Below, one piece after another: positions 1,769 to 39,279 of a DNA stretch of 64,000 nucleotides. Made by a program: the position numbers and the translations under genes. The notes beneath the pieces were generated by a model. That model ran no database searches. It saw only the letters and a program-made list of their open reading frames with translations, and had not been told where the DNA came from. Origin of the DNA: a virus (taxonomy: Duplodnaviria; Caudoviricetes). The stretch spans positions 32,001 to 96,000 of IMG/VR virus record IMGVR_UViG_3300029928_000001; one strand, given 5' to 3'. Every line of letters begins with the position of its first letter. Position 1 is the stretch's first letter.

Positions 1769-1800
1769 AGGGGAGATAAAATCATCTCCCCTTGTTTTTT
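1769..1800 (+). terminator. Rho-independent terminator
   Basis: AGGGGAGAT-aaaatc-ATCTCCCCT hairpin followed by a T tract. Confidence 0.75.
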
Positions 1801-1820
1801 TATAAAAAATATGATATAAT
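1792..1820 (+). promoter_or_regulatory. sigmaA extended -10 promoter for the rSAM operon
   Basis: TTGTTT-N17-TATAAT with TG extension. Confidence 0.65.
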
Positions 1821-1858
1821 ATTTATATAAGAAAATTTTTATGATAAAGGTGATATAG

Positions 1859-3115
1859 ATGAATTATAATAAAAATTTATTACCAATTACTGATGTATGT
1901 TTAAATATAACAGAAGAATGTAATCTTGCTTGTGTATATTGTTTTACCGAGCATCATCCACATTATATGACTTTAGATGTAGCAAAAGATGCTGCTAAAT
2001 GGTTACATGAAAATGCAATTTTATCTTCAAAAATTCAAAATAAAGAAGTAATTCCCAATATTGGATTTTTTGGAGGAGAACCTACGTTAATGTGGGACTC
2101 TATTATTGTTCCATTAGTTAAATGGATCAAAGAAGAAAAAAAATGGAAATTTACATTTGGTATTACATCAAATTGTGTTTTATTAGATAAAGAAAAAGTA
2201 GATTTCTTAGTGCAAGAACAAATTGGACTTTTAATTTCTATGGATGGTAATGAAAAAAGTCAAAATATAAATCGTCCTTGTAAAAATTCTTGTTTAAATA
2301 GTTTTGATTTAGTTTCTAAAAATTTACCTTATATAGCAAAAAATTTTCCTTCTTCAACTTATAGAAGTACTATTAGTAAGCAAAGTGCTCCTTATGTATT
2401 TGACAACTTAATGTATGCAGGAAAAATGGGATTTGAAAATGTTTTTTCAATTATTAATGATTTTGAAGAATGGGATGAAGAATCAAGAAAAATTGTTGAA
2501 CAAGAATTTGATAAATATTGTTTATATATAATTGATGCTTGTATTAAAGAACAAAATTTTGTTAAATTAAGACCTTTTGAACTTGCTATTAATAAAATTG
2601 TAGCAGTCAATACTTTTTTATTATTTAACGAAGAAAGTGATATTGAAGAATTTGGTCCTCAAGATGAACATCGTTGTGGTATGGGCAGCGGATATGGTTC
2701 TATTAATTATAAAGGAGAAGTTTATTCATGTCAAGAAGTTGCAAGTCGCCAAGGAGAAAAAGATATTTTTTATATTGGTAATATTTATGATGGCATTAAC
2801 TTTGACCGTATTGAAAAATTAAGAAAATCTTTTTTAGAAAGAAAAACACGTTTTTATAATTATACCAATTCTAAAAAGTGTAAAAATTGTTTATCTAAAG
2901 CAACTTGTAATGCGAATTTATGTCTTGTAAATAATTATATTATGTACAAAGATTTTAGTGCAAATACTGATGCTTGGTGCTGGTGGAATAATATGCTTTT
3001 AGAAAAAGCAATGAATGTCTTATATATTTTAGGTACAAATAAAAATGAGTTTTTTAAGCAATATTTAATTAATGAAATGCATCAGCAAGGAGGATTATTC
3101 CATGCAAATGAATAA
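1859..3115 (+). CDS. Radical SAM / SPASM-domain peptide or protein maturase
   Basis: CNLACVYC (CxxxCxxC), FFGGEP, ISMDG; SPASM-like Cys set CGMG..GEVYSC..CKNC...C...C. Confidence 0.9.
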   Translation: MNYNKNLLPITDVCLNITEECNLACVYCFTEHHPHYMTLDVAKDAAKWLHENAILSSKIQNKEVIPNIGFFGGEPTLMWDSIIVPLVKWIKEEKKWKFTFGITSNCVLLDKEKVDFLVQEQIGLLISMDGNEKSQNINRPCKNSCLNSFDLVSKNLPYIAKNFPSSTYRSTISKQSAPYVFDNLMYAGKMGFENVFSIINDFEEWDEESRKIVEQEFDKYCLYIIDACIKEQNFVKLRPFELAINKIVAVNTFLLFNEESDIEEFGPQDEHRCGMGSGYGSINYKGEVYSCQEVASRQGEKDIFYIGNIYDGINFDRIEKLRKSFLERKTRFYNYTNSKKCKNCLSKATCNANLCLVNNYIMYKDFSANTDAWCWWNNMLLEKAMNVLYILGTNKNEFFKQYLINEMHQQGGLFHANE

Positions 3116-3932
3116 TTTTTTCCCAATATCTAATTATTATGCTCAAACTTTAGGAGAAACTCTGAAGCAAAAAGAACAACAATTTCCTTATGTAAATAAT
3201 AATGAAGGAATTGCTGTTACAGCTACTTGTTCGGGAACAAATTGTACTGGTGGATGTAAGGGGACTTGCAAAGGAACTTGTGCTGGTGGATGTAAGGGGA
3301 CTTGCAAAGGTACATGTTCAGGGACATGCTCTGGTACATGTACTGGAACATGCAGTAGCACATGTTCAGGTAATTGCGCAAAAACATGTACAGGTGGGTG
3401 TGAAACTTATTGTCAAAAATGCCAAGCTTATTGCCAATATGAACAAACTTTTTCAAAAAATAATGGTGCAAATAAACCGACTGGGGCAGGAAAAGTATTT
3501 ACCTGGGATTCTACTGTTGGAGAAGATAAAACTATCTTAATTAGTGCCACTGATTGGAATAAATTAGCAGGATATGTTGAAAATGCTGCAAGCGTATGTG
3601 TAGGAGGTAGTTCTGGCTCTATCACTAGAGCAAAAAAAGATGAGGCTATCTCTGCTGCAATATTTAATTCTATGAGTTCAAAATTAACGGCAATTACTTC
3701 GCGTATTGTCAAAGATAAAGAAAAAACCGCAAATCAAAGTGTTATTTACGCTTCAGACTTTGCAGCATTAAAAAATGGATATAATAATGCACAAATTAAA
3801 AGTACTTTACCAAGTGGAAAATATCCGACCTCTGGCGGAAAAAACTCTTGTTGTCAGTTAGGACAAGCTTGTATGACACAGGCGCAAGGCCGCCCTAGTC
3901 TGCAACCATGTACTCAATCTCCAGGTAAATAA
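3102..3932 (+). CDS. Cys-rich CxxxC-repeat protein, probable substrate of the adjacent rSAM enzyme
   Basis: AGGAGG at 3088-3093 before ATG 3102; overlaps the rSAM stop; 18 Cys mostly every fourth residue (CKGT/CSGT/CTGG), then a ~160-aa C-terminal domain. Confidence 0.75.
   Translation: MQMNNFFPISNYYAQTLGETLKQKEQQFPYVNNNEGIAVTATCSGTNCTGGCKGTCKGTCAGGCKGTCKGTCSGTCSGTCTGTCSSTCSGNCAKTCTGGCETYCQKCQAYCQYEQTFSKNNGANKPTGAGKVFTWDSTVGEDKTILISATDWNKLAGYVENAASVCVGGSSGSITRAKKDEAISAAIFNSMSSKLTAITSRIVKDKEKTANQSVIYASDFAALKNGYNNAQIKSTLPSGKYPTSGGKNSCCQLGQACMTQAQGRPSLQPCTQSPGK
3243..3314 (+). repeat. 36-bp tandem duplication inside the CxxxC tract
   Basis: tgt(a/g)ctggtggatgtaaggggacttgcaaagg... occurs at 3243 and 3279. 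Confidence 0.85.
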
Positions 3933-3933
3933 T

Positions 3934-3962
3934 TTGAAAAAATATAAAAAATATGTTATAAT
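3934..3962 (+). promoter_or_regulatory. sigmaA extended -10 promoter
   Basis: TTGAAA-N17-TATAAT with TG. Confidence 0.65.
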
Positions 3963-3997
3963 AAATTATAATAAAAAATAAGAAAAGGAAATAATGT

Positions 3998-4684
3998 ATG
4001 AATAAAGATTTAGAAAAATTAACCAAATTATTAGAAGATACTTTATCGTCCTTAAAAAAAGATGAAAAAGATACAACAATTACTAAATTATTAAATGACG
4101 TAATAGATAGTTCTGGTTGGAAAAAAGGTTTTGATTCTATTATTGAAATGAAAAGTAATATTGACCGAGAACTTTTTGTTGGAGATATTGATGATGTAAC
4201 TGGTGATTCAATTAATAGTTATATTCAACTCTTTAATAAACAAGATGAAGAAGATCATATTCCAGTAGAAGAAAGAAAACCTATTAAATTATATATTGAT
4301 TCTCGTGGCGGTGATTTATATGCAACAATGACTATGATTGATGCTATTAAATTATCAAAAACTCCAGTATGGACTATTAATATTGGTTGTGCTTATTCTG
4401 GCGGTTTCTTTACCTTTATTGTAGGACATAAAAGAATTTCTTATCCTAATGCTTCTTTCCTTTTCCACGAAGGAGCTGCGGCAAATCAAGGTGATGCAGG
4501 CAAGTTTAGAAATTTTGCCGATTTTTATAGTCGTCAATTAACAAAATTAAAAGAAATTACTTTGGAACATACTAAGTTTGATGAAGCATGGTATAAAGAA
4601 CACATTAATGATGATGTTTGGCTTATGGCTGAAGATGCTTTAGAAAATGGCGTATGTGATGAAATTACTGATAAATTAGTATGA
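3998..4684 (+). CDS. clpP: ClpP-family protease subunit
   Basis: LYIDSRGG, AYSGG (catalytic Ser), FLFHE (His), WLMAEDALENGVCD. Confidence 0.85.
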   Translation: MNKDLEKLTKLLEDTLSSLKKDEKDTTITKLLNDVIDSSGWKKGFDSIIEMKSNIDRELFVGDIDDVTGDSINSYIQLFNKQDEEDHIPVEERKPIKLYIDSRGGDLYATMTMIDAIKLSKTPVWTINIGCAYSGGFFTFIVGHKRISYPNASFLFHEGAAANQGDAGKFRNFADFYSRQLTKLKEITLEHTKFDEAWYKEHINDDVWLMAEDALENGVCDEITDKLV

Positions 4685-6618
4685 ATAACGAAATAAGAAC
4701 TTTAATAAATAAATTAAATGCTTACACTGAATTATATGATAATGGCACTCCTACAATTTCTGATAAAGAATGGGATGATTTATATTTTCAGTTAGAGCAA
4801 ATGGAAAAAGAGTCTGGAATTATTTATCCAGACTCTCCAACGCAAAAAGTTTTATATAGTGTAGTTAATGAATTACAAAAAGTAGAACATAATCATTTAA
4901 TGTTATCTTTAGAAAAAACTAAAGATATTGCCGAAGTAGGTAATTTTGTTAAAGGTAAAGAGTTTTTAGCCATGAGCAAAATGGATGGCTTAACTTGTAG
5001 TTTATTATATCAAGATGGTAAATTGGTAAGAGCTGAAACAAGAGGTGATGGAATAATTGGAGAAGATATTACCCATAATGCTAAAGTAATTGCTAATATA
5101 CCAACAGAAATAAACTATAAAGAAGAGTTAGTTATTGATGGCGAAGTTATTTGTGATTTATTAACTTTTAATAATTTATTTGCGGAAACCTATAAAAATG
5201 CAAGAAATTTTGCGGCGGGTAGCATTAGGCTGCTCGATTCTGGCGAAAGTAAAAATAGACATTTATCTTTTGTAGCTTGGGAAGTTATTGAAGGATTTGA
5301 AGATATAAATACAGTAAGTGGTAAACTTGATAAAGCAACTGATTTAGGTTTTACTACCGTGCCAAGAATAGTATCAACAGCTTTTGATGATACTGTTTTT
5401 ATTACAGGAATTACCACTGCTTCTAAATCTCATTTTTATCCTATTGACGGTATTGTTTTTAAGTTTAATGATATTGAATATGGTAAAAGTTTGGGACGCA
5501 CTGAACATCATTGGTCAAATGCTATCGCGTTTAAATTTTACGATGAAGTTTATAGAACTGCACTAAGAGATATTGAATGGAGCATGGGTAGAACAGGTGT
5601 TCTTACTCCAATAGCAATATTTGATGAAGTAAATATGGATGGTTCTAGGGTAAGTCGCGCAAGTCTTCATAATGTAAGTGTAATGCGTGATACTTTAGGA
5701 ACACCTTGGGTTGGTCATTTAGTAGATGTTTGTAAAATGAATATGATCATACCTCAAATCCAAAAGAATGAAGAATTAAATGCCGAAGTGCTCGGTCCTG
5801 AAATTCCTTTACCAACTATTTGCCCGGTTTGTGGTGGTGAAGTAAAATTAGAGGAAACTGATAATTCTTTAGTATTAAAATGTATGAACCCTGCTTGTCA
5901 AGGTAAATTAATTAATCGTCTCGACCATTTTTCGGGGAAAAAAGGTTTAGATATAAATGGTTTATCTAAAGCTACTTTAGAAAAACTAATTGATTGGGGT
6001 TGGCTTAATTCATTAATTGATATTTTTAGTTTAAAAAATTATCGTAATGAATGGATTAAAAAAGCAGGTTTCGGTGTTGCTTCAGTAGATAAAATACTTG
6101 CGGCAATTGAAGCAAGTAAAGACACTACTTTAGATAAATTTATCTCTTCTCTTGGTATTCCATTAATTGGTTCTCGTGTTGCTAAAGATATTATGAAACA
6201 TATTAATAGATATGATGAATTAAGAGATTTAGTTATAAATAATTTTGATTTTGCGCAATGGGATGGTTTTGGTGAAAGTAAATCTGATAATTTATTAAAA
6301 TTTGATTATACTGAAGCTGATGAAATTTATAAGTTATTAAATATTGCGAAAACTCGGTCAGAGATCGCAGAATCGGCGCTTGCGCAAGATTTAACTGTAT
6401 GTATTACAGGTAGTTTGAAAGAATATAAGAATAGAACTGAATTACAATCTGCTATTGAATCTATTGGCGGTAGGGTAGTAAGTTCTATTAGTAAAAAAGT
6501 TAATTATTTAATTAATAACGATGTTAATTCAACTTCGAGCAAAAATCAGCAAGCTAAAAAGTTGAATATACCAATTATAAGTGAAAAAGATTTTAAAGAA
6601 AAATTTCTTGACTTATAA
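4681..6618 (+). CDS. ligA: NAD-dependent DNA ligase
   Basis: MLSLEK, KMDG adenylation motif, TRGDG, Zn finger CPVCG, C-terminal BRCT. Confidence 0.95.
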   Translation: MNNEIRTLINKLNAYTELYDNGTPTISDKEWDDLYFQLEQMEKESGIIYPDSPTQKVLYSVVNELQKVEHNHLMLSLEKTKDIAEVGNFVKGKEFLAMSKMDGLTCSLLYQDGKLVRAETRGDGIIGEDITHNAKVIANIPTEINYKEELVIDGEVICDLLTFNNLFAETYKNARNFAAGSIRLLDSGESKNRHLSFVAWEVIEGFEDINTVSGKLDKATDLGFTTVPRIVSTAFDDTVFITGITTASKSHFYPIDGIVFKFNDIEYGKSLGRTEHHWSNAIAFKFYDEVYRTALRDIEWSMGRTGVLTPIAIFDEVNMDGSRVSRASLHNVSVMRDTLGTPWVGHLVDVCKMNMIIPQIQKNEELNAEVLGPEIPLPTICPVCGGEVKLEETDNSLVLKCMNPACQGKLINRLDHFSGKKGLDINGLSKATLEKLIDWGWLNSLIDIFSLKNYRNEWIKKAGFGVASVDKILAAIEASKDTTLDKFISSLGIPLIGSRVAKDIMKHINRYDELRDLVINNFDFAQWDGFGESKSDNLLKFDYTEADEIYKLLNIAKTRSEIAESALAQDLTVCITGSLKEYKNRTELQSAIESIGGRVVSSISKKVNYLINNDVNSTSSKNQQAKKLNIPIISEKDFKEKFLDL

Positions 6619-9794: not shown

Positions 9795-10036
9795 AACCTG
9801 AAGTAATTATATTAAAAGAAGAAAAAGATAAAAAAGTAATTATTGAAGATGTGGATGAACTTTTAAAAATATTTAATAAATTTTATGCAGCTGGATATCA
9901 GGATGGAAGAGAAAGTAATATAACTATTACGACGCCTTCATCTCAGTCTGGACAGTCTTATGGCAGTGGCATTGCAGTTCCAGATTGGTCACAAAAAATT
10001 ATTTATACCACTGCTAGCAATGATAGTAAAAATTGA
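9791..10036 (+). CDS. Hypothetical protein
   Basis: GGAGG RBS, ATG overlaps the upstream stop. Confidence 0.6.
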   Translation: MKPEVIILKEEKDKKVIIEDVDELLKIFNKFYAAGYQDGRESNITITTPSSQSGQSYGSGIAVPDWSQKIIYTTASNDSKN

Positions 10037-11414: not shown

Positions 11415-14400
11415 ATGGCAATTAATTTATTGAATATTCAACCACATAAAGTCAGTAAAGACTTAAGCGGTTATATCACATATATTTATGGAGCTTAAAT
11501 CGGGGCTCCCTACGCGGTAACACGTAGAAAACAATTCCTATAAGAAACTGGAACCCTTGCTATTTATAGTATTGTGGAATCAGAGCGGAAGTTATAATTT
11601 AAAAGTTATAACACGCGCAACGCATAGATATATAAAACTTAATTTTAAAAGAAAGGAGTGTCCAAAAATGGATACCAGATTATTACCAGAAGCTATTGAT
11701 TTTTATAATCAAGGTAATTCAATGAATAAAACAGCAAAACAATATAATAGTACTCCACAAACTTTAAAAAAACTTTTTATTTCTAATGGAGTTAAGATTA
11801 GAAACCAAAAAGAGCAATTAATTTTAGAGAATATAAAAAGAGCAAAGCCTATTAATCATACTTATTTTGATAAATTAACTAATGAAAATAGTTATTATTT
11901 AGGATTTTTAGGTGCCGATGGAACTGTAAGAAAAGATAGAAATGAAATTAAAATCGGTTTATCTTCAATTGATTTAAGTTTTTTAGAAGAATTTCAAAAA
12001 AAATTACAATCTGAAAGACCAATTCATAATTATCAAACTAATAATGGTTTTGACGTTTCCGAATTAATCTTTTCTTCTGCTAAAATAAAAGAAGAAATAA
12101 TGAAATATGGGATTGTCCCTAATAAAACTTATATAGGTTTAAATTTAGATTTAATTCCACAAGAATTTCAATTGCCATTTATTAAAGGTTTCTATGATGG
12201 TGATGGTAGTGTAGTTTATAACCAAAACACTAAACAAGTAAAATTAACTTTTTGTTCATATACAAAAAAGATATTAGAACAAATTAATATTTTTTTTAAT
12301 AATAAAGGACATATTTACTCTAACCAAAGGACAAAAAATATAATTTATGAATTAGATTTTTCTACATTGCCAAGTTTGGATATTTTAAAACAATTTTATG
12401 AATTAGATACACCTTGTTTAATTCGTAAATATGAAAAATATCTTAATATTTTAAAATTAAGACAATAAAATCCACGAGATAGGAACTCCTCAGACGAGGA
12501 TGAAAAGTTATGCTGAACTGGGTCGGAATTGACCGACCGTTAAAATGAGAGAAATCTCCAGAAGTAGAAGATAAAAAGCTTCTACGATAACAGCTCGTTG
12601 CCGAAAACGGGCAAAACAACTCTGGCTACGCAAATGGGAGAAGCATTACTTTTAGCATTCGAGCAAGGATATAATGCTCTTCCAGGCGTTATCGCTCAAG
12701 ATATTACAACTTGGGGACAGATGAAAGAAGTTTATAGAGAACTTAAAAAGCCAGAAGTAAAAGAACATTATAAAGCTGTTATTGTTGATACTATCGACAT
12801 TGCAGCCGACAGATGCAAAAAATATATTTGTAATCAAAATGGTATTGAGGACCTTGGTGAACTTGGATACGGTAAAATCTTTGCCGCTTAATATAGTAAT
12901 ATATTAATGAAAATGTAGTAAAAAGCTGGAAAGCTAAGTTATATAAAAATAATACGCTAATCAGAGGTGAAGGCTAAATTTAAAAGTTTAGTCAGCCGCA
13001 ACGCATAGAAAAATAAAACAATAAAGAAAGGATTTGTCTAGGCATGGGAAAAATCATTATTCCACAAAAACAAGTAGAAAAAATTATATATAATTATCAA
13101 GTATTAAAAATGGCACAGGGAAAAGCCGGTCAAGAATTTGGCTATTCTGCAAAAATTGTTAAAAGATTATTACAAGAAAATAATGTTTATATTAGGAGTC
13201 AATCAGAATCACGACAACAATATCACATCAAAGAAAATTATTTTAATACAGAAACTTCTAATATGGCTTATATTTTAGGATTATTAGCATCAGACGGATG
13301 TGTAGCAAGTAATAAAAATTTAATATATATTGAATTACAGCGTTCCGATAAAGAATTATTGGAAAAAGTAAATCAAGAATTAGAAAATGAACGTCCAGTG
13401 AAAGATTATTGTGCTTCAAACGGATATGAAAATAGCAAAATTTATTTCTATTCTAAACAAGCTAAAGAACAATTAGCAAAATATAAAATTATTCCAAATA
13501 AAACTTATAGCGAAAATTTTGGGTTTCCTACAAACTTACAAAAAAAATATTGGATAGATTATATTAGAGGCTATTTTGACGGAGACGGATGTATAAAAGA
13601 TTCAAATCATACTCCAACTTGGGAAATTAATTCTGTAAATTATGAAATTATTGAAACAATTCAAAAATTTTTCTTAGAAGAATTTAATATTCAATTAAAA
13701 ATTCAAACTTTTATAAATAATAGAAAAATTCCAATGTATAGAGTATATTGCTATGGACAAGAAAATTGTCATAAAATTTTTGATATATTATATAATAATA
13801 CAAATTTGTTTTTAACAAGAAAAAAAGAAAAATTTAAATCTTTATTGAAATAATTTTCCACGAGACTACATATCTCTTGTATGGAGATAAAAAGTTATGC
13901 TGAACTTATAGGAAACTATAAGAGCTATAGGATAAAAAGCCTATAGGATAACAAAATTGAAAGGTTGGACCAAGTTTAAAGATGAATTTAATGAAGTCTT
14001 TAGAGGTTTAACTCAATTAGGATACGCCGTTTTCTTTATCGGACATGATAAAGAACAGTTTGTTGATAATCCTGACGGTACTCAATCTAGAATTATTAGA
14101 CCAGCCCTCTCTAATTCAACTAGAGAAGTCATTTCTGGTATGGCTGATATTTATGGATATGCTCATCAAAAATATGCTGGTGAAATGTCTGTATTAACTC
14201 TTAGATGCACTGATGGAAGTATTTCTTGCGGATGTCGCTTTAAGTATCTTCCAGATGAAATTACAATGAGTTATGATAATTTAGTAAATGCTTTACATGA
14301 AGCTATTGATAAAGAAGCTGCAGAACATGATAATCAGTTCGTTACTGAAGAACGCGCTACGGTAGTCCCAGAAACTCCAACATATGATTTTGACGCTCTT

Positions 14401-22076: not shown

Positions 22077-22270
22077 TGATAGTTTGTGATAAATGTAGAG
22101 AAGAGAAAAAATTAACAAAATATATAATACCAAAAGAAGATTGGACAGGATGGAATGTTGAATATCGAGGTCAAATTTTAAAAAGTTTTACAGAATATAA
22201 AGTTCTTCCAACAGAAATAGAATTATGTAATGAATGCGCAACCGAGGTGGCAAGAAAAATATGGAATTAA
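22076..22270 (+). CDS. Small Zn-ribbon hypothetical protein
   Basis: CDKC...LCNEC; translationally coupled to the upstream gene. Confidence 0.6.
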   Translation: MIVCDKCREEKKLTKYIIPKEDWTGWNVEYRGQILKSFTEYKVLPTEIELCNECATEVARKIWN

Positions 22271-25200
22271 CTATACGTCAGCAAGAAGGATTGCGCATTG
22301 CGGTTGAGCGATACCATAATAGAGAACCTTATACCGTAATTAGCGGTTATGCGGGTGCGGGCAAGGCGCAACCAATAGAAACAATTATACCGACTCCAAA
22401 CGGAAAAAAGAAAATAGGAGAATTAAAAATAGGTGATTATGTTTTTGATCGTTTGGGTAAACCAACTAAAGTTTTAGGCATATATCCGCAAGGAAAAAGA
22501 AAAAAATATGAAATTACTTTAGCTGATGGACGAAAAACTATTTGTGCTGATGATCATTTATGGAGTTACTATACCAGTCGAGGTAATTTAAATACAAAAA
22601 CAACACAAGAAATGTTAAATAGTGGCTTAAGAAATTCTAGTGGATTTAAATATAAAATTCCAAATAATCAAGCTGTAGAATATCCTAAGCAAGAATTTAT
22701 TATTGATCCTTATATGATGGGAGTATTTTTAGGTGATGGATGTTGCAAAGAAAGATATTTAACGCTATCTTCTGAAACTGATGAAATTCCTAAAAATATT
22801 GGAGAAATAATTGGTGCAATTCCTTATAAAAGTTCTATAAATAATTATAGTTGGACATTTGAATGGATTGAACATACGGAAACAGTTAAATGGAATAATT
22901 CTAATAGAATAGAAGAGCGAAAAAAACCAAAAACAATAGATTATTTTCAACCATATGAAAAATATTTGTTATGTTATGCTCAAGAAAAAGATATACCTCC
23001 AGAGTATAAATTAGGAAGTATACAACAAAGATTAGAATTAATCCAAGGCCTCTTAGATACAGATGGCTCAATTAGTCAACATGATCAAAATCGTTTCAAT
23101 ATAAGATTTACTTCGACAAGTATTAAACTAGTTCAAAGTTTACAAGAAATTTTATATAGTTTAGGATATGCATCTACAATAACTGAAGATAATCGTAATG
23201 AAAAATATACAAATGAAATCTGCTATGGGTTAAATATTAATATTCCAAATGAAGAAAAATATAAATTATTTCGCTTAAAGAGAAAAAAAGATATAGCGGA
23301 AAAAGCCAAAGAATTTCATAAACATAAAGATTATAATAAAATTTCTATTATTGATATTCAACCTTTACAAGAAGAAGCAGAAATGGTTTGTATTTATGTA
23401 GAAAATGATGAACATTTATATTTAACTAATGATTATATAGTAACGCATAATACTACACTTGTAAAATTCATCATAGCAGCTCTTGACCTTAATCCGGAGA
23501 AAGATGTTGCTTATGTGGCATTCACAGGCAAAGCGGCCACGGTCCTCTCAAAGAAAGGTAATCCAAACGCTATGACAGCGCATAAGCTTCTTTATACTGC
23601 TCGTCAAAAATCCGATGGAACTTTTTTCTTTATTCCTAATCCTCCGGGTTCTTTAGAATATAAAGTCATAGTATTAGATGAATGTTCTATGCTCCCAAAA
23701 GGTATGTGGGATAGGCTACTCAGCCATGGAGTTTACGTGATAGCCTGCGGAGATCCGGCTTAACTAGGAGGAAATGGGTCGGATTTAAAAAAATTGGTTT
23801 AATTGCGGGGATATCCTTAGAGGTTGCTCATACCAACTTAAAATAGTGATATTTTAAGGGCGAAAAGTAATGTTGGAGATATAGGTAAAAATTGGGCGAC
23901 ATTGGACAACCCGCAGCTAAGTTTCTTTAAATATTTATGAAATTAAAAGAAAGGATAAAAATATGAATGGGAAAAAGAAAAACACAAGAGCAATTTGAAC
24001 AAGATGTATTTGAGCGCTTAGGCGAAAATTATGAATTATTGAGTCCATATCCTGGCGCTCATGGAAAAGTGTTAATGAAGCATTTTATCTGTGGAAATAC
24101 TTTTCAAAAAAATGTTCATGATATTATTAGTAAACGAAGTGGATGTCCATATTGTAATGGAGCAAAACCGGCTTTGTATAATGAAAAATGGGTGAAAGAT
24201 AATACACCTGAACCATATGAATATCGTTCAGGATATAGTAAAATGAAAGAAAAATGTATATTTTATTGCAAAAAATGCAATAGCGAATTTGAACAATCTC
24301 CTAGTAGATTAATTAATGAACATATTTATGGATGTAATTGTTGTCCAACAAAAAAATGGTCTAATGAAGAATTTTTATCACAATTAGGCGAGACTTGTTT
24401 AAATGAGTATGAAGTTTTGGAAGAATATATTACAACTGATACTCCAATTCGTTTTAAGCATAAAAAATGTGATACAACATTTTCTTTATCTCCTTATAGA
24501 TTTATTTATCGACATAATAAAAAATATTGCCCAATTTGTTATTATAAAAAATCTCAAGGAGAAGTAATAATTACTACTTTTTTAAAGAATAATAATATAG
24601 ATTATCAAAAAGAATTTATATTTTCTGACTTACCACAAAGACGTTTTGATTTCTTTTTGCCAGAAGAACAAATAGCTATTGAATTTGATGGTAAACAACA
24701 TTTTGAATATATCCCATTTTTACATAATAATAACATTGAAAATTTTTATTTAACTCAACAAAGAGATCAAGAAAAAAATGATTTTTGTTTATTAAATAAT
24801 ATTAAATTATTTAGATTTTCTTATATAGATTTAGATAATTTAGAAGAAATACTCCAACAAATATTTAAAGAAAAAAGTTCAACGACTATCGAAAAATATT
24901 TAGTAAAAAATATGAAGTAGAGTAGAGAATAAGCTAATGATTCTCGAAACAGCCAACATAGAAGATATAGTCTGTTCTTATAAGAAATTATAAGCCCTAT
25001 GGGGAAAAGAGTTGCGTCTTTTCCTAAACAATATAAACAATTACCTCCAATTAATCCCGAAGACGACAACCATGCGCTCGACAAACCGCATATTTTCCTT
25101 GATGAAATTATGCGTCAAGCGCAAGATAGTGAAATTATTAGATTATCTATGTGGGTGCGTGAAGGGCATGATATAAAAGATTTTAACTGTTCAAATAAAC

Positions 25201-25817
25201 AAGTAAAAATTCTTTCAAAAAATGAATTAGTGTCAGGTGTATATAGCTGGGCTGATCAAATTCTTTGCGCTACTAATGCGACTCGCAATAATATTAATGC
25301 TTTAATGCGTCAGTATAAAGGTTTTGGATCTACACCTGAAGTAGGAGATAAAATTGTATCTTTATCTAATCATTGGGAGTATTTATCTAAAAATAAAACG
25401 AATATTCTTACAAATGGTTCTATTGGATATATTACTAATTTTAAAATAAAAAAAGAATATTTTCCTCGATACATTACTTCTGAGCCAATAGATTATATGT
25501 ATACAACTATGAAATTGGAAGATGAAGAAGATTATTTTTGTAATATGCCTATTGATTATAACACTTTATTAAATAATCAAAAATCTTTAACATTAAGACA
25601 AAGTGCGCAGATTAAGAAAAGTAAACAAGTGTTTATTGATCCGCCTTATGATTTCGCTTATGCGTACGCGATGACCTATTGGAAAGCCCAAGGTAGTGAA
25701 TGGAATAAAGTTTTAGTAATGGAAGAAAATTTTCCTTATGATAAAATAGAACATCGACGAGCAATGTATACAGCTTGTACAAGAGCTTCTGAAAAATTAG
25801 TATTAATTTTAAATTAA
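22261..25817 (+). CDS. Dda/RecD-like SF1B helicase with intein and intron; exons 22261-23760 and 25038-25817
   Basis: GYAGAGK|TT, AFTGKAA, LDECSM, GDPA|QLPP, TYWKAQGSEW and YTACTRA motifs. Confidence 0.85.
22366..23451 (+). mobile_element. Ala1 (class 3-type) intein, 362 aa, with LAGLIDADG domain
   Basis: GK|AQP...DHLW...MVC...VTHN|T; MGVFLGDG and IQGLLDTDG. Confidence 0.9.
23761..25037 (+). mobile_element. Group I intron in the helicase gene; apparent terminal A
   Basis: IGS GGTCGGAT pairs ATCCGGCT; P7 GACTA (24884)/TAGTC (24968); 3' junction inferred from GDPA|QLPP. Confidence 0.8.
23967..24932 (+). CDS. Intron-encoded endonuclease (Zn ribbons + Vsr/PD-(D/E)xK-like domain)
   Basis: Repeated H/C..C...CP.C units; RFDFFLPEEQIAIEFDGKQH; with TAG=Gln it ends at TAA 24930-24932. 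Confidence 0.75.
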
Positions 25818-27956: not shown

Positions 27957-30900
27957 ATGAGTATAAAACGTTTTGAAATACATTCACACACTCATTATTC
28001 TTAACTCTAATCTAAGACTTATAGACTCCATTAATCATCCAAAAGATTTGATTAATAAAGCTATTGAGTTAGGGTATTGTGGAATAGCAATTACTGACCA
28101 TGAATGTTTAAGTGCTGCAATGGAAGTAAATCAATACGCTAAAAAAATAAAAGAAAAATATCCAGATTTTAAAATTGCTTTAGGTAATGAAATTTATCTA
28201 ACAGACAATAGAGATCGTGGGCAAAAATATTATCATTTTATTTTAATTGCTAAAGATGAATATGGTTTTAAAGCATTAAAAGAAATGAGCACAATTGCTT
28301 GGGATAACATATATACAGATAGAAAAATGGAGCGTGTCCCTTTATTAAAAACAGAACTTAAGCAAGTAATGTCAAAATATAAAGGTCATATTATTGCTAC
28401 AACTGCTTGTATTGGTGGAGAATTATCTCAATTATTACTGCAATTAGTTGAAGCAAGAAAACAAGATGATAAGCAAAAAGCTAAAATTACTTATAAAAAA
28501 ATTATTGATTTTATTGAATTTTGTTTAGATGTATTTGGGCAAGATTTTTTTATTGAATGCGCGCCATCTGATTTCAAAGATCAGATTATTGTAAATCAAC
28601 AATTATATAAGGTAGCACAAGTTTATGGCATTGATATGGTTGTTGGTACTGATGCGCATTATTTAACAGCAGAAGAGCGTCCAATGCACACAGCATATCT
28701 TAATTCAAAAGATGGCGAACGAGAAGTTGATGCTTTTTATCATTACGCTCATCTTATGGATTTTGAAGAATGTGAACGATTATTGAATTTAAGTTTTAAT
28801 GATTTAGATATCGTTCATACAATTATGTCTAATAATAATAAAATTTATGATAAAATACAAGAGTATGATTTAGCTAGAAAACAAATTATTCCAAAAGTAA
28901 CGGTAAAAAATTATCCAAAATTAAGTAAAATAATTGATGAAATAAATTATCCTGTTTTATCTCAACTATTTATTTCAGATGAAATTCAAGAAAGATATTG
29001 GGTAAACGAATGTTGGAATGAATTAAATAATAAACAATTAGTAAATCCTGAATATATTAAACGACTTGAAATTGAAGCTGACATTATTAAATATATTGGA
29101 ACACAATTAGAAGATTGCCTTTTTGCTTATTTTAATACATTTAAACATTATATTGATTTATTTTGGGAATGCGGCTCGATTGTCGGTCCTGGACGTGGTT
29201 CAGCTACAGGTTTTTTAAGTAATTTCTTATTGGGTATTACTCAATTAGATCCAATTCGTTGGGGGCTGCCGTATTGGCGTTTCTTGAATAAAGAACGTGT
29301 GGAGCTTCCAGACATCGATATAGACCTCGCACCGTCAAAACGCCCAGCAATTTTTGAAGCAATTCGTAAAGAAAGAGGAAGATATGGATTAGTACAAGTG
29401 GCTACTTTTGGTACTGAAGGGACTAAATCGGCAATCCTTACTGCGTGTTTCAAAAAAGGCACTAAAGTAAATACTATTAATGGAGATAAAAATATTGAAG
29501 ATATTCAAGCCGGAGATTTAGTAAAAACTTCTGAAGGATATGAAAAAGTTATTGCTCCTACAATTTTTACAGGAACCCCTTCCTATTGTATCAAGACAAA
29601 AAATTCTACAGTAAAAAATTTTTACTGTACTTCAGATCATGAAATTCTTGCAATAAAAAGAACTAGAAGAACGGAAGGCGATAATGTTGATATAAATACT
29701 TTTAAAACATTATTTCCTGAAATTAAAGATTTACCTTCTACAAATAAATTTTATGATGTGAGAAGAAGAAATTGTAAAAAAATTTCTCCTAAATGGGTTC
29801 CCGCAAAAGAAATCGGAGATAATTATTATGGATTAACTTTAATTGATAATACTGTTAATAATATAGCTGAAATTCATTGGGAAAATAATTTTTATCAACG
29901 TTTTGGAATCGGTATAAATAACAATATCCCAATTTCAAATGATTTTTGTGAATTAGTGGGAATTTGGCTAGCCGAAGGAAGTATTAATAAAGCTAATAAT
30001 ACGGTAAGTTTTACAATAAAACAAAAAGAAGAGGCATTAACAAAAAGAATTATTGAATTAATGTGGAAAGTATTTTCTTTAGACAATGCTTGTATAACCG
30101 ATAGGGATAGCTCCGCTGCAAGGACTATTGCATATTCTTCTTCCCAACTTGCCAATTTCTTTTTACAGTTATTTGATAACACAGGAATTTGGAAAGAAAA
30201 AAGATCTGATAATTCTTATCATTATTTAACTCAATGGGATAAAAAATTACCAGATATTTTACGTTATATAGACCCTAAAAAACAACTTCAAATTTTTAAA
30301 GGATGGTTTTTAGGAGATGGATATGCTCGTTCTGAAGATTTGGGGGATCGTCAAGCCAAAGGAACGACTGTATCTAAAAGACTTGCTGATGATATGATTT
30401 TTATTTTACATAGAAATTTTATTAATCCAAGTATTGATATTGAAAAAAGAAGTCTAAATCGATCTGACAGATGTGATTGTTATAATATTTCACTATATGG
30501 AAATTATGCTACATATTTATATAATTACAAATATGTTAATAAAGATTTCTCTCAAATTTTAGAATTTCCTATTGAATGTATGCGAAGCATTGACGTTCCG
30601 GTAATTTATAATTCTAAATTATATTTAAAAACTAAGATACAAGGAACTTATATTCCAGAAGAAACAGAAGATATCGTATATTGTTTAAAGATGCCTCATG
30701 GCAACTTTTCTGTGAATAATACCCTTGTCCATAACTGTAGAGGATATCGATCTGATGAGTTTCCAGCAGGAATTAATATCGAAGATGCTCAATATATGTC
30801 AGGACTAATTCCACAAGAAAGAGGATTCTTATGGGATATAAAAGATGTCGTATATGGTAATGAAGAAAAGAAAAGAAATCCTGTATCAGCTTTTATAAAA

Positions 30901-33900
30901 GAAGTAAATAAATATCCTGGCTTATTAGATATTATTATGAGCATTAATGGACTTATTAATAAACGTTCTACTCATGCTAGCGGTGTTATTTTATATGATA
31001 ATGATCCATTTAAAACCGCTTCTTTTATGAAAACTCCTGGAGGCGACTTGGTTACTTGTTTTGATCTCCATGCGGCAGAAAATGGGGGAGATACCAAATA
31101 TGACTTCTTAGTAACTGAAGTTAGTGATAAAATTATCCAATGCTTAGAATTATTAGAAGATGAAAATGTAATTGAAAAAGATTCATTGCGTAATCTGTAT
31201 AATAAATATTTGCATCCAGAAGCAATGGATACAACTAAACCAGAAATTTGGCAACATCTTGAAGCAGGAGATATTCTTGACGTATTTCAATTTAACGAAA
31301 GTTCAGGCTTAGCTATTGCTAAAAAATGTAAACCAAAAGATGTATATGAAATGACTGCGGCAAATGCTATGATGCGTCTTATGAGCGAATCGGGCAAAGA
31401 GTCACAACAAGACAGGTACGTGCGCATTCAGAAACAAGGTATCCAAGTTTTTGATAATGAAATGAAGCAACATCATTTATCTGATAAAACGAGAGCAGCT
31501 TTACATAAACATTGTGATGCTTATTTTGGTTGCGTGCCGTTACAAGAGCAAATGATGGAAATTCTTATGGATGAAGATATCGCAGGTTTCACTTTAGGAA
31601 GAGCAAATGCGGCGCGTAAAATTGTAGCAAAAAAGAAAATGGATCAAATTCCAGATTTAAAAGCTGAGGTTTATGAACACATTCCTAATAAAGAAACGGC
31701 TGACTATGTCTGGGAGATCGCGATAGCGCCGTCATTAGGGTAAACGAAAAGTCATGCCCTTACATACCTAACCTGTTATCGCAGGGGTAAATTAATCACC
31801 AAAAATTTGGGTATTCTTGATTAATTTGCTAACGGGGAAAGCTAAGTATAATAGAGGAAAATATTATATATGCCAATCCCGTGACAAAGATTATCTTAAT
31901 ATTTTATTTTTCCTCTGAATTTTTTAAATTGAAAGGAAAAATGAAAATGAATTATATTTATTGTTATACTAATTTAATCAATGGAAAAATTTATATCGGT
32001 CAAACAAACAATATTGAACGACGTATTCGAGAACATAAAAGTAATGCTTTTAATAGTAAAAGCGTAAATTATAATAATATTATTCATAAAGCTTTTAGAA
32101 AATATGGATATGAAAATTTTTCAATTGATATATTAGAAACTTTAGAAAATGCTAGTCGAGAAGAAGTAAATGATAGAGAAATTTATTGGATAAAAGAAAA
32201 GCATAGTTTAATTTCAGAAAATGGATATAATGTATTAGAAGGTGGCCGAAATGGATACCAAAAATCTTTACTAAATAAAGAACAAATTACTGACATTAAA
32301 CGAATGATCAAAGAAAAAACTCCATATGATGATATTTGTAAAAAATATAGTGTTTCTAAAACTTTTATTTCAGATATTAACAATGGAAGATTTTTTTATG
32401 ATGAGCAAGAAATTTATCCATTATGTTCATATAGATTAGACAAGGATTTATATGATTTATTAATTGAAGATTTATAGAAACCTATTTTAACCTTTTCCCA
32501 ATTAGCTGATAAATATTCAATAGCACAATCTACTGTTAAAAAATTTAACTATGGAACTTTACGTCATGGAGAATTTTACAAAGGAGAATATCCTATTAGA
32601 AAAATTACTCCACAAGATTATAAGGCTGAATTGATTATTGATTATTTATTAAATACTGATTATACAAAAAAAGAAATAATTCAATTGGTTGGAACTTCTG
32701 ATGAAACAATAAGAAAAATTAATTTAGGAATTAGACATCATCATGAAGATTTAACTTATCCATTAAGATAGTAAGTTTGTAGAGACTATCCCGGGTTAGA
32801 CTGGGAGTAGGGCTACTATTGATACGTAGCTAGGTTTTAGGAAACGAAGCCTATGAAAACCGAAACGGTATGATTATTTATTTTAAAACAAATAATTAAA
32901 AGATAGTCCAATTCTAATAGAAATATTAGAGAAAAATTGATGCTTTTTCAAAAAATCATTCACTTCCGTATTCTTTCGTCGGTGTCCAAACGATCGTTTT
33001 AGCCACACAATTTAATCCTATCTATTGGAATACAGCTTGTTTAATTGTCAATAGCGGTTCATTAGAAAATAATGAACAGCTTGAAGAAGTGGATATATTT
33101 GAAGGTGAAGATGATATAGCTGATGGTGTTATTTATATAGATGCGCCAGATGGACAAACTAAATTAAGAAAAGTTTCTACAGACTATGGTAAAGTGGCAA
33201 AAGCTTTAGGTGATGTAATTAATGCAGGTATTAAAGTTAGTTTAGTTGATATTAATAAATCTAGTTTTGGTTTTAAACCCGATGTAGAAAATAATCAAAT
33301 TATGTTTGGCTTAAAAGGTTTATTAAATGTAAGTGATGAAATTATTGCTGATATTATTAAAAATAGACCTTATAAATCTCCAAAAGATTTTTTAAGAAAA
33401 GTAAAGCCAAAAAAACAATCTATGATTTCTTTAATTAAGAGTGGAGCTTTTGACTCAATGATGGAGCGTAGGGCTTGTATGGTTTGGTATATTTGGGAAA
33501 CTTGTGATAAGAAAAGTAATTTAAACTTACAAAATATGGCAAGTTTAATTAAGTTTAATCTTTTACCAGAACAAACTGAAGAACAAACAATGGCTCGTCG
33601 TGTTTATGAATTTAATAGATATCTAAAAGCTTGTTGTAAAATTAATGGAACAACTAATTATATTATGAACGAGCGTACTATTGATTTTCTTGCTGAATTA
33701 GATAAGGTTAATTTAATACAAGAGGATAATACATTAAATGCTAAAATATGGGATAAGGTTTATCAAAAATGGATGGATGTATTCAGAATATGGATTAGCG
33801 AAAATAAACAACAGATTTTAGATAATTTAAACACTTTAATTTTTGAACAAGATTGGGAGAAGTATGGCGATGAAGGAAATATATCTCGCTGGGAGATGAA

Positions 33901-34384
33901 AACTATGTGTTTCTATTATCATGATCATGAGTTAAAAAATCTTCAAGAAAATTATTATGGAATAAAAGATTTCTTTAAACTTTCTTCAGAGCCAATAGTA
34001 GAAAAGACTTTTGAGCGTGGTGGAAAAACTATTCCATTATATAAACTTGATAAAATAGCAGGAACTTGTATTTCTAAAAATAAAAGTAAAGCAACTGTTA
34101 CTTTATTAACCACTACTGGTGTTGTAAATGTTAAATTTAGAAAAGAATATTTTTCTTTATTTGATAAACGTATTTCAGAAAAACAGCCAGATGGAACAAA
34201 AAAAGTTAAAGAAAATAGTTGGTTTAATCGTGGAGAAATGATTATTGTTAATGGCATGCGCTCTGGTGATGATTTTATTGTGAAAAAATATGCAAGTACA
34301 GTTGGACATCAATTAATGAAAATTACAAGTATTGATAATGAAGGTCGAATTACTGTAACGAGTGAAAGATATGAGGTACAATAA
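27957..34384 (+). CDS. dnaE: DNA polymerase III alpha (DnaE) with a 7-nt 5' discontinuity, one intein and one group I intron
   Basis: PHP motifs HSHTHYS / AITDH / TDAHY; GPGRGSA; PDIDID; STHASG; KYDFL; splicing 31741^32940 restores PSLG-YAFSKNH. Confidence 0.9.
29446..30735 (+). mobile_element. Intein (430 aa) with LAGLIDADG domain in DnaE
   Basis: LTA|CFKKGT...TSDH...LVHN|CRG; VGIWLAEG and FKGWFLGDG. Confidence 0.95.
31742..32939 (+). mobile_element. Group I intron in dnaE
   Basis: IGS CAT-GCCCT pairs 5' exon AGGGT and 3' exon ATG; AGACTAT (~32783) and ATAGTCC (~32903) form P7; terminal G. Confidence 0.9.
31941..32774 (+). CDS. Intron-encoded GIY-YIG homing endonuclease with HTH repeats (internal TAG)
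   Basis: YIYCYTN..KIYIGQT; reading through TAG 32475-32477 adds two more HTH-like repeats ending YPIRK and YPLR; stop TAA 32772-32774. Confidence 0.85.
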
Positions 34385-38800: not shown

Positions 38801-39279
38801 GATACGCAGATTTAAAAATAAACGATACAGCTAATGGACCTGGAGTAAATGTTTCATTCTGGGTCCAAGGTTGTCCTCATCATTGTAAAAATTGTTTTAA
38901 TCCAGAAACTTGGAATTATAAAGCAGGAAAAGAATTTACAGCAGAAACATTAGAACAAATCAAACAAGCTATTTCTGCTAATGGTATTCAACGTAATTTA
39001 TCAATTCTTGGCGGTGAACCTCTTTGTGCAGAAAATTTATTTCTAACTGAGTTAGTAATTCGAGAAATAAAAAAAGATTTCCCACATATAAAAATTTATG
39101 TATGGACTGGATATATTTATGAAGAATTATTAAATAATAGCAATAAATCCTTAAAATATATTTTATCTACTATAGACACTTTAGTAGATGGTCCATATAT
39201 AGAATCACAAAGAGATATTACGCTTCCTATGCGCGGCTCGCGCAACCAAAGAATTATTGACTTAAAACAAAAAATATGA
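38797..39279 (+). CDS. nrdG: Anaerobic RNR activating protein
   Basis: NGPG, QGCPHHCKNCFNP, LGGEP, LVDGPY and RGSRNQR. Confidence 0.95.
   Translation: MRYADLKINDTANGPGVNVSFWVQGCPHHCKNCFNPETWNYKAGKEFTAETLEQIKQAISANGIQRNLSILGGEPLCAENLFLTELVIREIKKDFPHIKIYVWTGYIYEELLNNSNKSLKYILSTIDTLVDGPYIESQRDITLPMRGSRNQRIIDLKQKI

Follow-up and report, generated by a model that had tools for sequence, protein, structure and literature searches.

A virus of the class Caudoviricetes encodes, side by side, a radical S-adenosylmethionine (SAM)/SPASM enzyme and a protein carrying a regular ladder of cysteines. We propose that the two form a dedicated enzyme-substrate pair, in which the enzyme staples its target with thioether bridges, in a phage of an anaerobe. 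We assign this explanation as a whole, which draws on analogy with characterized maturases, a probability of roughly 0.6. The two genes occupy positions 1859 to 3932 of a 64,000-nucleotide (nt) stretch of DNA, hereafter the window, which spans bases 32,001 to 96,000 of the 178,419-bp IMG/VR viral record IMGVR_UViG_3300029928_000001, complete according to CheckV. Unless given as genome positions, coordinates refer to the window, and all features of the two-gene unit are on the plus strand. The proposal rests on the resemblance of the enzyme to a known class, on the conserved coupling of the two genes, and on published chemistry. Its parts differ in strength: sequence comparison makes it quite probable that the enzyme acts on the ladder protein as its substrate, analogy somewhat favors a thioether as the product, probably to a non-alpha carbon, and a virion-associated role of the product, suggested by sequence relatives, is tentative.

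Results

The first gene (1859..3115) encodes a protein of 418 residues that the earlier note on this DNA had read as a radical SAM/SPASM protein. It is indeed a full enzyme of the peptide-maturase kind, with the radical SAM triad CxxxCxxC at residues 21 to 28 (C21-x3-C25-x2-C28) and the complete set of seven SPASM cysteines (C273-x12-G-x4-C291, C341-x2-C344-x5-C350-x4-C355, and C374). Compared with the reference SPASM motif, CX9-15GX4C...CX2CX5CX3C...C, the enzyme deviates in one spacer, which is 4 instead of 3 residues long. Pfam recognizes the Radical_SAM, Fer4_12, and SPASM domains, and the scores against PF04055 (37.9 versus a cut-off of 29.5) and TIGR04085 (33.2 versus 27) place the protein within the superfamily. 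Among NCBIfam models, the top scorers are without exception thioether or peptide maturases, headed by the PapB-type model NF047865 (147.9 bits versus a cut-off of 340) and including the nif11-type (120 bits), SCIFF (115 bits), and CcpM (108 bits) models. TIGR04115, the maturase of CXXX-repeat targets, scores 90.3 bits (cut-off, 350), and the QhpD model TIGR03906 scores 88.5 bits (cut-off, 453). The anaerobic sulfatase maturase model also matches (E 2.6e-14), as do many other SPASM families. The enzyme has no N-terminal RRE, the leader-binding domain of many such maturases, since its catalytic core starts the protein, with the triad from residue 21, and the RRE-bearing models (SCIFF, nif11, and CcpM) align only from profile positions 73 to 95.

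The second gene (3102..3932) encodes the 276-residue target, whose ATG lies 7 nt after a GGAGGA; an upstream ATG at 3072 was rejected as the start because homologues align from ATG 3102. The features that had been pointed out in this protein are all present in the sequence, namely, a leader of about 42 residues, 18 cysteines at a spacing of about four residues with a 36-bp expansion among them, and further cysteines near the end. The leader-like segment (residues 1 to 42; 3102..3227) contains the conserved motif [FY]-I-P-I-S-x-Y-[LY]-A and a predicted helix at residues 11 to 27, and it may help the enzyme to recognize its target. The ladder follows at residues 43 to 111 (3228..3434) and holds 18 of the 23 cysteines of the protein, the others being at positions 166, 250, 251, 257, and 270. 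Successive ladder cysteines are spaced by 5, then by 4 in 14 consecutive steps, and finally by 3 and 4 residues; the units follow the pattern C-[SKTA]-G-[TGS], and a conserved cap, C-E-T-Y-C...C-Q-x-Y-C, closes the array. AlphaFold yields no confident fold for the ladder, which, if unmodified, would be a disordered segment rich in Gly, Ser, and Thr. At the other end of the protein, the C-terminal tail (3849..3932, stop codon included) carries four cysteines in the pattern CCQ-x-G-x-x-C-M-T...G-R-P-S-L-Q-P-C...Q-S-P-G, of which C250 and C270 are nearly invariant among homologues.

The ladder is not a chance pattern, because 49 homologues carry arrays of 12 to 50 CxxxC units. Its length changes by one unit even between strains, and the cysteine register is kept. 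Within the ladder, a 36-bp tandem duplication (3242..3317; 2.1 copies, 92% match) comprises three CxxxC units. Strain variants were read from contigs of four sequencing runs (X1 to X4) of one study; no RNA runs were among the listed sequencing runs that hold the phage. One contig, from X4, is shorter by 12 nt in the ladder, the length of a single CxxxC unit, and contigs of X2 and X3 carry seven clustered substitutions in the duplicated part; the strain-variable sites are at 3281-3296 and 3260-3275. Across homologues, the folded domain described below and the cysteine tail are more conserved than the array.

Our assignment to known repeat families is mixed. The earlier note had named bacterial families of CXXX-repeat targets and maturases, and the repeat type of the target probably agrees with them: PF27846 (tSAM_targ_Cxxx_rpt) is a precomputed match of the identical protein and of most of its homologues. 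The curated models themselves are missed, narrowly by the target (TIGR04114, 19.4 bits for a cut-off of 20) and widely by the enzyme with TIGR04115.

The target has 173 relatives in a searched set of 5.8 billion proteins; some 49 are full length (217 to 416 residues) with ladder, domain, and tail. Most of these possess the leader, a subgroup is leaderless, and several come from contigs of 100 to 200 kb. We examined the pairing in seven divergent related phage loci besides this one (eight in all), as the earlier note had suggested looking for co-occurrence of the two genes. An orthologous radical SAM gene is immediately upstream of the target in all seven (35 to 64% enzyme identity), and the two genes overlap or abut in six, being 161 nt apart in the seventh (L009). 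The cellular comparison, which sampled 185,579 species of bacteria and archaea by one genome each, gave a different picture: the nearest cellular enzymes are only 20 to 29% identical, and a CxxxC-rich open reading frame (ORF) lies within 4 kb of the enzyme in 3 of the best 80 cellular relatives. Judged from these comparisons, the enzyme clade is phage specific. The lack of co-occurrence that the earlier note had named as a refutation is not what the phage loci show. No radical SAM gene was found within 5 kb of P0063, a bacterial "modification target Cys-rich repeat protein." INPHARED phage records gave neither a DNA nor a protein match, and a viral-contig search for related loci with a single protein as the query returned nothing. 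A predicted complex of enzyme and target received a score of 0.06, a value that counts neither for nor against the pairing. A 116-residue protein is encoded close to the pair in five of the related loci; as this genome lacks it, we do not count it as a component.

Between the ladder and the tail, the target contains a folded domain (residues 118 to 238; 3453..3815), hereafter the carrier domain, built of three repeats of a beta-strand plus a helix. Each repeat opens with I-x-A-x-[DI][WF][NA] (ISATDWN, ISAAIFN, and IYASDFA). This is the only part of the target on which AlphaFold is confident, with a predicted local distance difference test score (pLDDT) of 78 and a predicted template modeling score (pTM) of 0.74 for the domain alone. 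The structure prediction that had been suggested for the C-terminal region thus returns a domain of about 120 residues, predicted with confidence to fold as a three-fold beta-alpha repeat. The best VIA match is the BARA domain of Vps30/Beclin-1 (Z 5.7; root mean square deviation, 3.7 Å over 108 residues), a weak match in the range of common arrangements, and the ESM Atlas offered nothing beyond unnamed viral clusters, scoring at most 0.84.

A profile of the carrier domain matched 499 proteins among 1.84 billion representatives. CxxxC ladders are present on 32 of the best 141; most of the others in this set have the domain at the extreme C terminus of proteins of about 200 or 500 to 800 residues, with FN3 domains or Listeria-Bacteroides repeats, and a few consist of the domain alone. 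In PHROGs, it occurs only within phrog_37329, whose function is unknown there. One FN3-domain version is encoded directly after a 3,213-residue tape-measure gene and a 1,377-residue protein, that is, in a tail module. From its position at the end of FN3 and repeat proteins and from this tail-module example, the carrier domain is, as far as sequence tells, a portable module that would at least sometimes belong to tail-associated proteins displaying an N-terminal part.

A second radical SAM cluster is present at genome positions 2018-5540, 26 to 30 kb before the window start, and is readable only with TAG as Gln. It encodes a 225-residue protein with NYSY/WNSGNYG repeats and 4 cysteines, followed by two coupled radical SAM genes (467 and 478 residues). 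The N-terminal 70 residues of the 225-residue protein align weakly with the carrier domain (hhalign probability, 69%; E 4e-5), and HMMER within the genome gives a domain E-value of 0.003, which is suggestive of a shared domain. In all, the genome holds five radical SAM-like genes. Two more such ORFs are at genome positions 70866-71132 (about window position 38866) and 168222-168431; the former, of 186 residues and near the gene for NrdD, probably encodes the NrdG activase.

Unit organization and genomic setting

The claim that the pair forms a unit with its own promoter, bounded by a terminator and the next promoter, and with an overlapping stop and start was borne out. A terminator-like hairpin with a T run (1769..1792; 9 to 10 pairs, 5 of them G-C) ends the upstream gene. 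The promoter of the unit follows immediately (1792..1827), with TTGTTT, 17 nt, and the extended -10 element TGATATAAT at 1812-1820. Rule-based promoter scanning had overlooked it. Its motif has 6 copies on the plus strand of the genome (at most 6 mismatches in 36 positions), each in TAG-free arms, and the promoter piece is present several times within the contigs of runs X1 to X4. The end of the unit is marked by the promoter of the next gene (3934..3962), TTGAAA-17-TG-TATAAT, with 11 of 12 positions plus the TG; this motif has 10 copies on the plus strand of the genome. Both motifs are related, of the TTGnnnAAAATATAAAAAATATGnTATAAT type with an extended -10, and all copies are outside the TAG-recoded block described below. 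These two repeated motifs look like the early sigmaA-type promoter set of the phage. Since the unit has a repeated promoter of its own and is delimited by the terminator and the next promoter, the pair is a separately promoted two-gene operon, probably transcribed early or in the middle of infection. Within the unit, the Shine-Dalgarno sequence GGAGGA (3089..3094) lies inside the 3' end of the radical SAM gene, and the target start (ATG 3102) overlaps the radical SAM stop (3113-3115) by 14 nt, an arrangement suited to translational coupling.

In part of the phage genome, whose G+C content is 31%, TAG encodes an amino acid. Between about 70 and 140 kb of the genome, stop-to-stop ORFs of 120 residues or more reach a coverage of 0.30-0.76 if TAG ends translation and of 0.85-0.99 if it does not, and a tRNA with anticodon CUA is encoded at genome positions 9907-9978. 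The pair is within a TAG-free replication arm, and neither the radical SAM gene nor the target gene has an in-frame TAG. The earlier note's view that the host code suffices for both proteins thus stands for this phage; it does not extend to the relatives, which have one to six in-frame TAG codons per gene, in one or both genes (in L006, in the enzyme gene only). Host-code translatability is therefore a trait of this phage and not of the family.

The arm encodes replication and nucleotide metabolism functions, with several homing endonucleases in between. Besides the pair, its genes include those for RNase H, a DUF2828/DUF7788 protein, a ClpP-like protease, an NAD-dependent ligase, helicases, primase, RecJ, DNA polymerase, and NrdD. 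The presence of NrdD points to an anaerobic host of this large gut phage and suits an oxygen-sensitive enzyme. The replication genes are much invaded (11557-13853, 22234-25817, and 27973-34384): two LAGLIDADG genes are among them, a Dda-like helicase gene is interrupted by an HNH endonuclease gene, and the DNA polymerase is split into two ORFs (27973-31743 and 33089-34384).

The gene directly upstream of the pair (244-1752) encodes the DUF2828 plus DUF7788 protein, which we take to be Ro60/TROVE-like with a vWA domain. In seven of the eight loci it is encoded no more than about 5 kb from the pair, being the immediate neighbor here and in L006, a proximity that may reflect conserved synteny or a functional link. 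The first gene after the target (3998-4684) encodes a ClpP-like serine protease (PF00574, E 6e-24) under its own promoter, and the NAD ligase gene also flanks the pair downstream. We rejected the ClpP-like protease as a member of the system, as it is not a kept neighbor across the related loci. As had been claimed, no transporter is among the genes neighboring the pair.

Discussion

The pathway that we envisage would start in the TAG-free replication arm, where a sigmaA-type promoter belonging to the unit would drive its transcription, and would continue with coupled translation of the enzyme and its target. The enzyme would then cleave SAM at its CxxxCxxC cluster and take a hydrogen atom from a residue within a C-x-G-T unit; by analogy with related maturases, the residue in the third position of these units (Thr, Ser, or Gly) is the likely acceptor. 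The sulfur of a neighboring cysteine would be bonded to that carbon, aided by the two auxiliary clusters. Proceeding stepwise along the array, the enzyme could form up to about 18 small thioether rings. Such a ring ladder would turn the disordered segment into a rigid stretch, resistant to reduction and to proteases, displayed on the three-fold beta-alpha repeat domain.

To our knowledge, the closest relative by gene arrangement, the CXXX-repeat system (TIGR04115/TIGR04114/TIGR04116), has been defined by comparative genomics and has not been characterized. It likewise places a SPASM radical SAM gene next to that of a protein with a cysteine at every fourth residue, and its targets are hundreds of residues long: bacterial matches annotated "modification target Cys-rich repeat" have 284 to 413 residues, mostly about 400. 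Several differences set the phage pair apart. The phage enzyme, 90 bits against the TIGR04115 cut-off of 350, belongs to a phage-only clade with at most 29% identity to cellular enzymes; the phage target adds a leader and a beta-alpha domain, whereas the bacterial matches align over the repeat only (14 to 40% query coverage); and a search of all 178 kb of the genome at E <= 1 gave no match to the TIGR04116 partner (CXXX_rpt_assoc).

The best-scoring family for the enzyme, at 148 bits, is that of PapB, the maturase of PapA (freyrasin), and other ranthipeptide maturases. PapB works processively along a repeated motif, closing many small thioether rings between Cys and side chains, and docks the leader through an RRE (PMC12373016). 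In contrast, the phage enzyme remains under the cut-off of this family (340) and lacks an RRE, PapB requires a carboxylate acceptor of which the phage array has almost none, and the phage substrate has 276 residues that include a folded domain.

Thioether chemistry on whole proteins has a cellular precedent. The SPASM radical SAM enzyme CrpC of Methanococcus voltae (TIGR04463) installs ranthionine crosslinks in the large Cys-rich repeat protein CrpA, with acceptors at about i+3 from the cysteine that vary (CAGM, CAVD, and CPLV), and QhpD crosslinks the protein QhpC likewise (PMC13692751). In this work, dated September 2026, recognition was only partly via RRE-leader contact and partly through domain-domain contacts (PMC13692751). 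In both cases, as we propose by analogy for the phage pair, a SPASM radical SAM enzyme installs thioether bridges in a protein. The earlier note had contrasted the 276-residue substrate with a short peptide; given the bacterial Cys-rich repeat targets and the published QhpD/QhpC and CrpC/CrpA pairs (PMC13692751), a protein-sized substrate is not unusual. Unlike the phage pair, however, these systems are cellular and RRE bearing, with no phage context; the repeat units are different (17-residue repeats with C-x-x-Q/D), and the QhpD model scores the phage enzyme at 88.5 bits against a cut-off of 453. Our literature search found no paper on a virus-encoded radical SAM enzyme acting on a Cys-repeat protein, nor on the CXXX-repeat system. 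Because the family cut-offs are missed and both the RRE and the TIGR04116 partner are absent, we take the pair, on sequence grounds, to be a minimal form of the CXXX-repeat/ranthipeptide kind that is peculiar to phages.

Several observations weigh against the proposed enzyme-substrate pair or its suggested role. The enzyme is far under the curated cut-off of every maturase family. Asp and Glu, the acceptors of PapB and QhpD, are nearly absent from the array. The enzyme has no RRE, and a subgroup of targets is leaderless, two features that bear on substrate recognition. In L004 and L010, the enzyme beside the target lacks three cysteines of the CX2CX5CX3-4C motif; a second maturase paralogue is encoded just upstream in both (L004:3030-4736 and L010:3499-4737), that of L010 retaining the cysteines of the second SPASM motif and that of L004 carrying an intein. 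The whole-protein and domain models found no significant match among solved or predicted viral folds (PDB and BFVD), and Foldseek E-values for these models were above 0.02. Finally, the pair is situated among replication genes with an early-type promoter, outside the structural module, a poor fit to a virion role.

Since no family cut-off is reached, the reaction is not readable from family membership, and the enzyme could modify the array by another chemistry, such as formylglycine formation, alpha-carbon (sactionine) bonds, epimerization, or C- or S-methylation, the ladder then being a reactive or metal-binding surface. The match to the anaerobic sulfatase maturase model and the scarcity of the usual ranthionine acceptors in the array are in keeping with this. 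On the other hand, the strongest model matches are all Cys-thioether maturases, the target has no sulfatase-type C-x-P/A-x-R motif, and CrpC accepts nonacidic residues such as Met and Val (PMC13692751). We regard a different chemistry as unlikely.

Less likely still, the ladder could be a metal or Fe-S module, metallothionein-like or serving as a cluster or sulfur store, with the radical SAM enzyme as its client or partner; the phage would in this way provide an Fe-S source of its own to the five radical SAM-type genes that it carries. The dense Cys-Gly-Ser-Thr-Lys composition does recall metallothioneins, many Cys-rich proteins bind metal cofactors, and the Crp cluster was reported to be induced on pyrite (PMC13692751). 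Yet the array is strictly beside one SPASM maturase clade, mostly translationally coupled to it, and not beside other radical SAM genes. Moreover, a leader-like segment and a conserved cap accompany the array in most members, and a freely varying number of units would be unusual for a defined cluster site.

It is equally improbable that the target is a true precursor of a ribosomally synthesized and posttranslationally modified peptide, with the ladder cut from leader and domain and freed at lysis as a stapled peptide against competing bacteria or phages: the leader-like N terminus, the Gly that is conserved just ahead of the ladder (here N-N-E-G / I-A-V; among relatives, N-Y-G / I-S-L), the Peptidase_C39_2 gene directly after the target in L004 and L010, the ClpP-like protease gene downstream here, and a lysis that would remove the need for an exporter would all suit it, but the protease neighbors are not conserved over the eight loci, the folded domain and cysteine tail are better conserved than the array, larger FN3 proteins also use the carrier domain as a module, and one target subgroup is entirely leaderless.

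Returning to the proposed thioether-stapled target, its place in the phage life cycle is the least secure part of our proposal. The earlier note had put forward a virion, anti-defense, or competition factor as candidates. The relatives of the carrier domain would point to the virion or tail, whereas the early-type promoter and the position in the replication arm would point away from a late structural gene. We tentatively suggest that, in phages of strict anaerobes, the product is a stapled part of the particle or an accessory protein docked via the three-fold beta-alpha domain, its up to about 18 rings acting as a redox-proof replacement for disulfides. In the same speculative vein, the second radical SAM cluster could act alike on its NYSY/WNSGNYG repeat protein, whose domain would be a distant relative of the carrier domain, and radical SAM maturation of modular carrier-domain proteins would then be a general viral strategy.

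Enzymatic thioether crosslinking has so far been a matter of small antibiotic peptides and of very few cellular proteins (QhpC and, in 2026, CrpA). The pair described here is small, needs neither an RRE nor a helper gene, and apparently tolerates arrays of 12 to 50 units, so that tests in Escherichia coli would be easy and its use for stapling would be attractive. The carrier domain, present in 499 representative proteins and without annotation, would gain its first functional handle. If phages do staple their own proteins, this would be a new viral posttranslational chemistry, suited to the reducing, anaerobic gut, in which disulfides are unreliable.

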